Shown here piece by piece: positions 51,599 to 55,485 of a DNA stretch of 64,000 nucleotides (the stretch's first letter is position 1; every line of letters begins with the position of its first letter). The DNA is from Escherichia phage LPEK22. Where the stretch lies: sequence record OK283619.1; one strand, given 5' to 3'. Position numbers and translations under genes: made by a program. The notes below the pieces were generated by a model. That model saw only the letters and a program-made list of their open reading frames with translations, was not told the origin of the DNA and made no database searches.

Positions 51599-52261
51599 CT
51601 ATGATAACTCATGGCGATGTCGAACACACGCAGGGCAATCACAATTCTTTTTCAAAATTGGCAATTCACACCATGTCATTAAGTCATGTATTGGGGACAT
51701 GTGATGATAGAACCAAGATTTCTTGAGACTAATCAATGGATATAAAATTTCAATAGGTCTTTCCCCGTCTCTGGTCATCATGTTGTACCCTTCAATGACT
51801 TTATTAAAGGCGGGTATCCAGTGTATTGCGTCATCGCCGTTAACATATGCCAATATATACGTGGAAGGCAAGCTCCTGCCTTTAAATTGCGTGTTTAATA
51901 ACCATATCGGGGCTTGTGCTAAACAAGAGCGAAAACCACCGTTCGGGACGTTGATGCTACTGATAGGTTCTTGATGATGTGTCCAACGATACATGAGAAG
52001 TGGGGCATTTTTATTAATCCAGTTGTGTATTTTATTCCTCGCCCAATTTTCGCGCTTAGATTTAAATTTATTATTTTCGAGGTGGCAATACACAGTATGA
52101 ACTGAATATCCTTTCGATAACAACCAAATCAACATGTATGTGCTATCCACCCCACCAGACCAGAACAACGTCACTTCTTGATTATTCTCCGGTAATGGAG
52201 CATCCCCTTGAAGAACACGGTATACAAAATCACAATCAGATATTGAGACAACAATTTCCAT
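51599..52261 (-). CDS. QueC-like PP-loop ATPase (7-cyano-7-deazaguanine synthase family) with divergent active-site region
   Basis: PP-loop FWSGGVDST; C-terminal Cys cluster WCELPILKKNCDCPAC parallels QueC zinc site as recalled; central GVCETDFSGYPDCR-equivalent region replaced. Confidence 0.6.
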   Translation of the reverse strand: MEIVVSISDCDFVYRVLQGDAPLPENNQEVTLFWSGGVDSTYMLIWLLSKGYSVHTVYCHLENNKFKSKRENWARNKIHNWINKNAPLLMYRWTHHQEPISSINVPNGGFRSCLAQAPIWLLNTQFKGRSLPSTYILAYVNGDDAIHWIPAFNKVIEGYNMMTRDGERPIEILYPLISLKKSWFYHHMSPIHDLMTWCELPILKKNCDCPACVRHRHELS

Positions 52262-52595: not shown

Positions 52596-52630
52596 TACAT
52601 TATACAAATAGAAAAGCCCCTTTCGGGGCT
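52596..52630 (-). terminator. rho-independent terminator (minus strand)
   Basis: Minus strand AGCCCC-GAAA-GGGGCT followed by TTTCTATTTG. Confidence 0.55.
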
Positions 52631-52920
52631 TATTTGTCTTCAGATTCGTACAAACGCCAATTGCCGATGCTAAACCATTCCCCCACATTATTTGAATATC
52701 TGGTTGTTCGGACTCCTCCGACTTCATACGCCCATTTGAAGAATTTCCATTTGGACGATAAAGAAGGGCATTCGCTTCCGGATTTCAAAGAACACGCTGT
52801 GAGCCAACGCGTAATACTGAGAGCCTGAAAAATCGGATGGATAAATGAAGAATACAATATCCAAAGCGTTATGGCAACAAAAACAATGGTCGTGATCACC
52901 CCGACAATTTGAAAGAACAT
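52630..52920 (-). CDS. small membrane protein (96 aa)
   Basis: N-terminal TM VGVITTIVFVAITLWILYSSF. Confidence 0.4.
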   Translation of the reverse strand: MFFQIVGVITTIVFVAITLWILYSSFIHPIFQALSITRWLTACSLKSGSECPSLSSKWKFFKWAYEVGGVRTTRYSNNVGEWFSIGNWRLYESEDK

Positions 52921-52996: not shown

Positions 52997-53629
52997 TCAT
53001 CCTTCCACCTTCAGCCCCATCAGGTCTTCCATGGTTTTCTGAATGCGTAGCCAGTCAAGCGCCGCATCATAACGAGGGTCATGATAGATCATACCTTCCA
53101 GTTCCCACGCCTTGATACCAGCATATCGATCCTGCTGCCCAACACCCTTCAGCCAGCTTACGATGTCAAATGTGTGGTGATAGTCCCAAGGTTCGTTGGA
53201 ATCTTGCTTACACGTCACCTCAATGATGTGCTGAGCCTTGCGTAGGTCAAACAGATTCCTATCACACCAGTCAACCGATCGCGGGTCGATCCCAAGGCGA
53301 TGGCATCCCCTGCGAATTTCATCGGCCAATTTGAAAATAGAAATATCCTTGTCGGTCGGATATAGACTGATAGCTCGGGCGGCGTCGCACGGGTTGCGTT
53401 TACCTGTACCCAGCCACCATTCCACAGTGCCCTGGTCTTTCACACGGCCAAGTTCAATCTGTTCTTTGACATTCAGTTTGATAAATGTCGTGCGCTCTAC
53501 AACAAGCTGCTGAAGAGTATAACGCTTGGTCAGGTCGGCGATAGTCTGTGCCCAAGACAACATGACAGCATCATCCCAACGACCGAGAGTTTCGCTATCA
53601 GCGACGGCCAAGAAATTAGATTTATACAT
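52997..53629 (-). CDS. DEDDh-type 3'-5' exonuclease-like protein (DexA-like?)
   Basis: Candidate Exo I motif VADSET and Exo III-like YHHTFD. Confidence 0.4.
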   Translation of the reverse strand: MYKSNFLAVADSETLGRWDDAVMLSWAQTIADLTKRYTLQQLVVERTTFIKLNVKEQIELGRVKDQGTVEWWLGTGKRNPCDAARAISLYPTDKDISIFKLADEIRRGCHRLGIDPRSVDWCDRNLFDLRKAQHIIEVTCKQDSNEPWDYHHTFDIVSWLKGVGQQDRYAGIKAWELEGMIYHDPRYDAALDWLRIQKTMEDLMGLKVEG

Positions 53630-53966
53630 CAGTTTCCCCTGCTTTCTCTAAAAGAAGTTTCAAAGGATATGTCCCACAAGCGGTGGCATACTCGACTTTG
53701 AAATATGAATTATCGTTCATGGCGAAATTTCGATGTGGGAAATATTCCCCGTCATCCAACCCGCCTAATCCCCCGCCGACGCGATATTGTTTTAACTCGA
53801 CTTCGCCGCCATAACGGAGTTGGGCATATAGGCCGATAGGAGCGCGAACATAATGCTCCAGCCATACCCAATTTCCATCGTGTAAACGTGTAGGGATAAA
53901 TGCAAAACGCACCTTGGGATGAAGAACGGCTTTGGCGAGCATCTCTTCTGTTATTTCACGCTTCAT
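53622..53966 (-). CDS. hypothetical protein (114 aa)
   Basis: ORF. Confidence 0.45.
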   Translation of the reverse strand: MKREITEEMLAKAVLHPKVRFAFIPTRLHDGNWVWLEHYVRAPIGLYAQLRYGGEVELKQYRVGGGLGGLDDGEYFPHRNFAMNDNSYFKVEYATACGTYPLKLLLEKAGETDV

Positions 53967-54568
53967 CCAATACCTTCCTCTTCGATGATATCTTCTTCAC
54001 TAGCGACGACAGAGATTCCGTAGTCTACCATCTGGGAAAGTTCTTGTAAATCTTGTTCAAACCCGTCACCCTGTCGGATATAAAAGACGGGTACGACACG
54101 ACGCCTGGTATCTTCGAAGATAGTATCTGCGATTTTATTAATCTGGCTCACCACATGAAACAGTTTCAATCCACCGATGCCACAGCCGATGGCGGGTAAA
54201 CCAACATAGACTGTTTCGTCAGTTTTTGCCTCAATGATATCGTGAACTTGTTCAAACATAATCTGAACTGAACTGATAATGGAAGGCATGCGTGCGTTAG
54301 GACCAGGGTAGAACTGAGTGTACAAATTGAATCCCCAGACACCAGTGTCATGATCAAACGCATAGGACATGTTCCCCAAACGTTGTTCCGGACCACGTTC
54401 ATCTAATTGGTCGGCTCGGTAAATTTCTGGGAAATCTAATCGAACATGGTTGGCGATACCTGCGCCCATCACAGACCAACAATTTGCGCCATGAGCGAAA
54501 GCATTGATGAGATTAAAACTCGTAGCGGCTTTCAGTAAATCGCCGTTTGTGATAACATATGTGGTCAT
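53963..54568 (-). CDS. macro-domain protein (ADP-ribose binding / hydrolase-like)
   Basis: INAFAHGANCWSVMGAGIA resembles macro-domain NAAN...GGGV motif; ATGA coupling at chosen start. Confidence 0.6.
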   Translation of the reverse strand: MTTYVITNGDLLKAATSFNLINAFAHGANCWSVMGAGIANHVRLDFPEIYRADQLDERGPEQRLGNMSYAFDHDTGVWGFNLYTQFYPGPNARMPSIISSVQIMFEQVHDIIEAKTDETVYVGLPAIGCGIGGLKLFHVVSQINKIADTIFEDTRRRVVPVFYIRQGDGFEQDLQELSQMVDYGISVVASEEDIIEEEGIG

Positions 54569-54801
54569 GCGTAACGTCTCCATTGTATAATTTCGTTGTT
54601 GACACAGCTAACCTGGATGATACACATATTCTGGCGATGGTCAGTGAGTGTCATAATAAAACTGTCTGTCTGTGCCATAACGCAATTGACAGATATTCCT
54701 CGCATTATCAAACGAACACAGATTTCTTGATATAATCGTTTCATGTATCCTGAAACTGAAGCGGACTCATACACGCGTTCAAATTCATATAACTCGTTCA
54801 T
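54565..54801 (-). CDS. hypothetical protein (78 aa)
   Basis: ORF. Confidence 0.4.
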   Translation of the reverse strand: MNELYEFERVYESASVSGYMKRLYQEICVRLIMRGISVNCVMAQTDSFIMTLTDHRQNMCIIQVSCVNNEIIQWRRYA

Positions 54802-55022
54802 TTATTCAGACCATCAATAGCGTGTTCAGAAATATATTCAACGAATTGGTTATCAGCTGCCATCTTTAAAAGTTCAAATAATTCCGTTCCAACGGTACTC
54901 CCAAACATCCCTTCCAATACACCCTGAACATCTTCATCTATTTCTTCGATGACGAGTCCATACGATTTCAGGCGGCGTGAAATAGCACGGAACTGGGCAA
55001 TATCACCAATTTCATTTGCCAT
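54798..55022 (-). CDS. hypothetical acidic protein (74 aa)
   Basis: ORF. Confidence 0.4.
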   Translation of the reverse strand: MANEIGDIAQFRAISRRLKSYGLVIEEIDEDVQGVLEGMFGSTVGTELFELLKMAADNQFVEYISEHAIDGLNK

Positions 55023-55071: not shown

Positions 55072-55485
55072 TCAATAGAGGTCTTCGGAAAAGAGTTCTT
55101 TGAAAGGAGTGTTCTTCAAACGGACCTGATTAGTTTGTCCGGCTTCACGAGCGACCACAGCAGCCTCTTCACGGGACATCCATTGCCCATAGTTATCAAT
55201 AAACCCTTGTTCACGAGTGTGGGTGGTTTCGATAATACCTGCTTCCTTCAATCGTTTGAGTTGCGTGTTCATCAATTTGTCGTGATGTCGGGCGCTTACA
55301 ACGATCACATCACCATATTTGTTGGCAGCAGCCACAACACGCCGATCAAACTTGGTTGGGTCAGGTATATCACGAGCATACAAGGCGATGTGAGTGTCGT
55401 TCACGTCCCCTTTCACTTCAGAGTATAATTGACACCCATTAGGAGATCCAGTAGGCAAAGAACGAAAATATCCAAGTAATTTCAT
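55072..55485 (-). CDS. hypothetical protein (137 aa)
   Basis: ORF. Confidence 0.45.
   Translation of the reverse strand: MKLLGYFRSLPTGSPNGCQLYSEVKGDVNDTHIALYARDIPDPTKFDRRVVAAANKYGDVIVVSARHHDKLMNTQLKRLKEAGIIETTHTREQGFIDNYGQWMSREEAAVVAREAGQTNQVRLKNTPFKELFSEDLY

Follow-up and report, generated by a model that had tools for sequence, protein, structure and literature searches.

Which function does a stand-alone macrodomain protein serve in Escherichia phage LPEK22? We addressed this question for the minus-strand gene at positions 53963..54568 of a 64,000-nucleotide (nt) stretch of the phage (sequence record OK283619.1; hereafter, the window), in which an initial annotation made from the letters alone had recognized a macro domain that could counter host ADP-ribosylating defences. 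Our analysis supports that interpretation. The encoded polypeptide, referred to below as the macro protein, is the Ackermannviridae counterpart of bacteriophage T4 Tk.4 (AdfM, anti-DarT factor macrodomain) and falls in the TARG1/DarG, or ALC1-like, class. We consider it likely that the macro protein acts as an orphan DNA ADP-ribosylglycohydrolase, undoing by a glutamine-type catalysis the thymidine modification that DarT2 introduces into replicating phage DNA.

The open reading frame (ORF) containing the gene spans 54583..53963 at its full extent, and the ATG at 54568 is its correct start, giving 201 residues. We assign this start because homologues in other phages open with MTTYVI, and because a GGAG motif lies 9 nt upstream and the GenBank records of near-identical phages give the same 606-nt coding sequence. 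The gene overlaps its neighbors through an ATGA at either end: at 54565-54568 with the stop of the upstream 78-residue ORF and at 53963-53966 with the start of the downstream 114-residue ORF, in agreement with the coupling to small ORFs that had been noted initially. The motif from which the macro domain had been recognized, INAFAHGANCWSVMGAGIA, corresponds to residues 21-39 of this protein. Searches returned 63 homologues at E<=1e-3. The gene is far above chance, as judged from these homologues, from its match to the family phrog_335 and from its AlphaFold2 model.

Taken alone, the Pfam Macro model (PF01661 clan) suggests a weak case, since it scores the macro protein below threshold (E 0.22, 11.9 bits against a 22-bit cutoff), but profile and structure searches settle the matter and show this impression to be wrong. 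The phrog_335 profile matches at E 6e-73, beginning at position 53 of its 422 positions. The PADLOC DarG (E 3.4e-10) and NCBIfam DarG (3e-9) models are the sole matches among defence and antitoxin models, the latter being limited to the N-terminal macro part (positions 3-135 of 338) and scoring 36.6 bits against a 250-bit cutoff. A phmmer search of the PDB recovered DarG macrodomains (5M3I at 1.2e-4), and a profile made from 35 family members detected Mycobacterium tuberculosis DarG (2.6e-26), Taq DarG (5.5e-25), Thermosipho africanus DarTG (8.9e-20), TARG1 (~6e-16), Poa1p (1.6e-11) and SCO6735 (1.1e-10).

The initial annotation had staked its reading on structural similarity to macro domains, and this similarity is present. 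An AlphaFold2 model computed with 33 homologues has a mean predicted local distance difference test score (pLDDT) of 96.5 and a predicted template modeling score (pTM) of 0.92, and adopts the macro fold, a mixed β-sheet between helices. Foldseek searches with this model retrieved TARG1, DarG and Poa1p at a probability of 1.00. Both glycine-rich ADP-ribose loops are recognizable: the alignments pair HGANCWSVMGAGIA (with N29) and PAIGCGIGG with those loops of DarG that contact ADP-ribose. The macro protein is thus a member of the TARG1/DarG/Poa1p ('ALC1-like') branch of macrodomains.

The closest functionally studied relatives of the macro protein are encoded by phages. T4 Tk.4 (1.3e-65) and PhiKZ gp104 (8e-43) belong to phrog_335 as well, and BLASTP aligns the macro protein to Tk.4 with 38% identity over 114 residues (E 1e-18) and to gp104 with 28% identity over 118 residues (E 1e-7); it is therefore a phage-encoded stand-alone macrodomain homologous to both AdfM proteins. 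Transposon sequencing (HIDEN-SEQ) identified tk.4 as the single T4 gene required on hosts carrying DarTG2, and a clean tk.4 knockout sensitized the phage to this system; ADP-ribose removal by Tk.4 was proposed, not measured (10.1101/2025.11.20.689424). PhiKZ gp104 strips DarT2-placed ADP-ribose off a DNA oligonucleotide and relieves the toxicity of DarT2, and substitution of its conserved active-site asparagine (N23A) lowers activity (Morgan et al. 2026, PMC13309987). A need for AdfM during growth on hosts that carry DarTG2 is known only for T4 and PhiKZ. T4 also encodes AdfN, an analogous NADAR eraser directed against DarTG1 (PMC11825919).

The macro protein shares with Tk.4 the HGxNC, NLYTQ and GxGIG motifs and a glutamine instead of the DarG lysine, whereas Tk.4 has an alanine in place of Cys129 in the diphosphate loop and comprises 155 residues, lacking the acidic C-terminal add-on of 36 residues described below. 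The two genes also differ in their settings, as tk.4 lies among different neighbors in the Straboviridae, and of the two only tk.4 has phenotype data. With gp104 the macro protein has in common that it is an orphan phage macrodomain with the loop 1 asparagine (N23 in gp104, N29 here), but gp104 keeps the DarG-type FPTK lysine and is imported into the phage nucleus, a compartment that Ackermannviridae do not form.

Across 33 homologues with identities down to ~30%, residues H26, G27, N29, C30, D53, N81-L82-Y83-T84-Q85 and G130 are invariant. Asn29 aligns to N22 of TaqDarG, and Gln85 of the NLYTQ motif aligns to Lys80 of the TaqDarG NFPTK motif. Lys80 is the key catalytic residue of TaqDarG, as K80A is inactive and does not rescue DarT toxicity, N22A has the second-strongest effect after K80A, and DarG residues G117-G121 contact ADP-ribose (PMC5179494).

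A glutamine at this position has a characterized precedent in Streptomyces coelicolor SCO6735 (PDB 5E3B), a stand-alone ALC1-like macrodomain with Gln85 in place of the lysine, which is efficient at releasing thymidine-linked ADP-ribose from DNA and shields cells against DarT (PMC9411070). Its activity is abolished by Q85A or Q85E, nearly abolished by N27S and substantially reduced by G128E; His24 has a structural role, and in the proposed mechanism an ordered water is used while Gln85 positions the distal ribose (PMC9411070). By match coordinates, H26, N29, Q85 and G130 of the macro protein correspond to SCO6735 H24, N27, Q85 and G128, so that the glutamine at the K80/K84 position, the loop 1 asparagine, the histidine and the loop glycine of the SCO6735 site are all found here. 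These equivalences derive from match-coordinate arithmetic rather than from a residue-level alignment, with the numbering of chain 5E3B_A taken as native + 20, an assumed tag offset that is consistent with the residues named in PMC9411070. SCO6735 is farther in sequence than DarG by profile score and is the product of a cellular, DNA-damage-regulated gene rather than a phage counter-defence protein. Its DNA-binding Lys34 is replaced by Ala36 in the macro protein; the other DNA-binding residue of SCO6735 is Lys89.

Our analysis establishes the fold, the family ties, the make-up of the active site and the gene context of the macro protein; from its relatives we infer that the substrate is thymidine-linked ADP-ribose on DNA and that the protein would protect the phage from DarTG2. 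The macro protein would bind the ADP-ribose that host DarT2 puts on thymidine in single-stranded phage DNA and cut the bond between ribose and base, thereby restoring replicable DNA. Catalysis would follow the glutamine route of SCO6735 and not the lysine route of DarG, with Gln85, held by Asn29, positioning the distal ribose and an ordered water beginning hydrolysis. The gene shares a long block on one strand with rII, topoisomerase and nucleotide-metabolism genes, a location that points to early or middle expression. The hypermodified base 5-NeOmdU carries its modification at C5 whereas DarT2 targets N3, and such a base could therefore still be a DarT2 target. In Kuttervirus DNA, 5-NeOmdU replaces ~40% of thymidine (PMC11721090; PMC5889632).

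We weighed other activities against this DNA-directed one. The first is that the substrates are small ADP-ribose metabolites and not DNA, the protein being a Poa1p-like ADP-ribose-1''-phosphate phosphatase, an O-acetyl-ADP-ribose deacetylase or a hydrolase of defence signals that derive from ADP-ribose. This would account for the 'phosphatase' label that the gene bears in many records, among them phage vB_Sen_ST2. Loop 1 (HGxNC) indeed resembles the HSCNC of Poa1p in an alignment of T4 Tk.4 with Poa1p, His26 aligns to Poa1p H23, and this Poa1p-like loop is probably where the label on relatives originates. The resemblance does not extend to Poa1p S30, whose position is occupied by Val33 in the macro protein when the Tk.4–Poa1p alignment is combined with the family alignment; our comparison with Poa1p relies on the former alignment and on PDB entry titles, H23 and S30 both being mutated in deposited structures. 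Profile E-values prefer DarG over Poa1p by ~15 orders of magnitude, the homologue Tk.4 has a specific DarTG2 phenotype, and SCO6735, a characterized enzyme with the same glutamine-type site, acts on DNA. We therefore regard a small-metabolite substrate as improbable.

What alone sets the macro protein apart is its C-terminal add-on (residues 166-201), which is structured and very acidic. AlphaFold2 predicts a helix (171-178), a strand (185-188) and a second helix (191-198), with pLDDT values of 94-98 until the last residues. The add-on is restricted to the closer homologues (P0001-P0036, ~35-76% identical, the named ones being from Ackermannviridae), the proteins of phages phiEa2809 and phiMAM1 being full-length structural matches, and the family alignment shows that it is absent from T4 Tk.4, PhiKZ gp104 and other distant short relatives. 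Extended members of the family also occur elsewhere: some phage Tk.4-family proteins are ~100 residues longer than the macro core, as in the BFVD matches of 245-260 residues from Acinetobacter phage 133 (tk.4), SUSP2 and vB_Eam-MM7, and the start of the phrog_335 match at position 53 of the 422-position profile indicates several extended architectures besides the Ackermannviridae add-on. According to Deep et al. 2023, as cited in PMC11825919 (ref 22), the C-terminal domain of DarG inhibits DarT via single-stranded DNA mimicry, and by analogy it is conceivable, as a speculation, that the add-on is a miniature DNA mimic. There is a small chance that it confers a second activity that Tk.4 lacks, either by blocking DarT as such a mimic or by serving as a handle for recruitment to the replisome or single-stranded DNA-binding protein, or else that the enzyme is tuned to DNA containing 5-NeOmdU.

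Removal of ADP-ribose from protein or RNA is a further alternative, which we judge to be quite unlikely; the macro protein would then undo modifications that ADP-ribosyltransferase toxins of the host make on proteins or RNA of either phage or host, or it would modulate a transferase that the phage encodes. Many different linkages are processed by macrodomains as a class, TARG1 ranks with the best structural matches (Foldseek E 4e-9), and SCO6735 also takes ADP-ribose off automodified PARP1 (PMC9411070). Yet the catalytic lysine of TARG1 is absent here, and DNA modified by DarT2 is the target both of the closest relatives in sequence and of the phage homologues that have been tested. As to a phage-encoded transferase, tblastn searches of the window with T4 AdfN and T4 Alt as queries gave nothing better than E 0.68, a search of low sensitivity, and in related phages no DarT, NADAR or Alt-like transferase is annotated near the gene (within 20 kb for Alt). 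We accordingly describe the macro protein as an 'orphan' eraser.

Very unlikely, in our view, is a protein that catalyzes little or nothing and neutralizes DarT chiefly through binding, whether as a stoichiometric inhibitor or as a reader of ADP-ribose, possibly helped by the add-on acting as a DNA mimic. The missing DarG lysine, the composition of the add-on (11 acidic and 0 basic residues) and the mimicry reported for the DarG C-terminal domain all fit such a role, as does the finding that the Q85A variant of SCO6735, although catalytically dead, continues to inhibit DarT by interacting with it (PMC9411070). However, the invariance of H26, N29, Q85 and G130 across 33 diverse homologues speaks for catalytic activity, Tk.4 functions although it has no add-on of this kind, and a segment of just 36 residues is unrelated in size to the C-terminal domain of DarG.

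Finally, the macro protein is not itself a DarG antitoxin (DarTG2; PDB 5M31, 5M3E, 5M3I, 7OMU), because DarG has a catalytic Lys80 where the macro protein has Gln85, is a protein of roughly 330-400 residues with a C-terminal DarT-binding domain that is lacking in the 201 residues found here, and is encoded beside darT, whereas the neighbors of the macro gene are small ORFs and dexA, with no DarT annotated in relatives.

A survey of cellular genomes agrees with this separation from DarG. The most conserved peptide of the family, scanned against 185,579 species genomes, occurs at nine loci, and seven of the nine cellular macro proteins carry an N-x-x-[TS]-Q motif at the position of NLYTQ, the exceptions being those of Campylobacter concisus and of a Sulfurospirillum metagenome-assembled genome. 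Pfam searches of ten ORFs flanking five of these loci detected no DarT domain; three of the ten gave no match at all, and the other seven fell into housekeeping families or unrelated ones (MnmA-like, RmlD-like, pyruvate kinase, Dfp, HepT). Gene context therefore offers no DarT link for the glutamine-type clade, which we interpret as a free-standing family of cells and phages and not as a recently captured DarG.

Features of the macro gene and its surroundings (positions in the window)
Feature	Position	Strand	Remarks
Stand-alone macrodomain protein, coding sequence; T4 Tk.4/AdfM homologue	53963..54568	-	201 residues + stop, 606 nt
GGAG ribosome-binding site	54578..54581	-	9 nt upstream of ATG 54568; ribosome-binding site annotated at the same site in phage Maynard
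Loop 1 of the ADP-ribose pocket, residues 21-39, INAFAHGANCWSVMGAGIA	54452..54508	-	His26, Asn29 and Cys30 invariant in the clade
NLYTQ motif, residues 81-85	54314..54328	-	Invariant; Gln85 at the DarG/TARG1 catalytic lysine position
Diphosphate-binding loop PAIGCGIGG, residues 125-133	54170..54196	-	Aligns to DarG PPLGAGNGG
C-terminal add-on, residues 166-201	53966..54073	-	11 acidic, 0 basic residues
Upstream 78-residue ORF, DUF7234, phrog_5593	54565..54801	-	Stop overlaps macro gene start (ATGA)
Downstream 114-residue ORF, phrog_5613	53622..53966	-	Start overlaps macro gene stop (ATGA)
DexA-like exonuclease	52997..53629	-	phrog_255, 1.3e-53; exonuclease/DexA label in relatives; next gene of the leftward string
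Terminator-like hairpin AAGCCCCGAAAGGGGCTT followed by a T-run	52614..52631	-	Terminator annotated at the equivalent place in phage Maynard

The macro gene belongs to a leftward string that runs from rIIA and rIIB through the topoisomerase II subunits and small ORFs to the macro gene, and then on to the 114-residue ORF, the DexA exonuclease, a PP-loop/QueC-like ORF, a phosphoesterase and a dCMP deaminase. The hairpin and T-run at 52631..52614 probably end the transcription unit. A promoter scan was uninformative (13 sites versus 12.3 expected).

The surrounding 3 kb match the Salmonella phages S8, SeHz-1, S117, kage and SFP10 at 99.7% identity; these phages belong to Kuttervirus in the Ackermannviridae (ViI-like). 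The macro gene and its overlapping neighbors are kept across Ackermannviridae genera, and a Klebsiella Taipeivirus has the same gene order and overlaps. By tblastn, the family is found in 2,721 phage records, at least 282 of them with a near-full-length copy, the listed examples of which are Ackermannviridae. The homologue in Salmonella phage bering (BFVD A0A6G9LAL9) comprises only 103 residues, with 98% identity over 100 aligned residues; this copy may be a split, frameshifted or mis-called gene, and it could be a natural inactive allele.

Public records already label the gene as 'ADP-ribose binding protein; contains macro domain' (phage Maynard) or 'Tk.4 protein [Shigella phage Ag3]' (a note in phage kage), and UniProt names the phiEa2809 and phiMAM1 homologues 'Macro domain-containing protein'. 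Identification of the domain is consequently not new, and current concepts remain unchanged because the family and its counter-defence role were described in 2025-2026. A 2024 review of the Ackermannviridae does not mention macrodomains, ADP-ribose or DarT. If our proposal is correct, these phages, which serve in the biocontrol of Salmonella and E. coli O157, are equipped with an eraser of their own against DarTG2, a defence by which enterobacteria ADP-ribosylate DNA, and the gene would be one more counter-defence item to aid in predicting their host range. The glutamine-type variant of the DarG-like site, so far characterized only in SCO6735, would likewise extend to a very large clade of phage proteins, T4 Tk.4 among them, which suggests that the lysine mechanism of DarG is not the one used by most phage 'AdfM' proteins.

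Several neighboring genes deserve a brief description; all four ORFs given here are on the minus strand. The acidic 74-residue ORF at 54798..55022 belongs to phrog_5924 and has no Pfam match; the name 'calcium-binding hemolysin protein' that it bears in many records looks like an annotation artefact. The 137-residue ORF at 55072..55485 (phrog_839, no Pfam match) carries conflicting labels: certain relatives have it as a 'C-N hydrolase superfamily protein', a Klebsiella Taipeivirus as a 'tRNA processing enzyme'. The 119-residue product of 55489..55848 matches DUF6527 (E 1.4e-13), and its CPGC and HxxxC-like motifs are suggestive of a small protein that binds zinc. The 220-residue ORF at 51599..52261, which lies two genes downstream from dexA, appears to be the counterpart of the 'QueC-like queuosine biosynthesis protein' of vB_Sen_ST2 and is termed 'hypothetical' in other relatives; a PP-loop/QueC-like enzyme may deserve attention in a phage whose known modification concerns thymidine rather than deazaguanine. 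In vB_Sen_ST2, a homing endonuclease gene (L013 26770-27618) adjoins the gene for the topoisomerase II large subunit, whereas none is annotated there in Maynard or kage, which points to a mobile-intron or homing endonuclease gene polymorphism among Kutterviruses.
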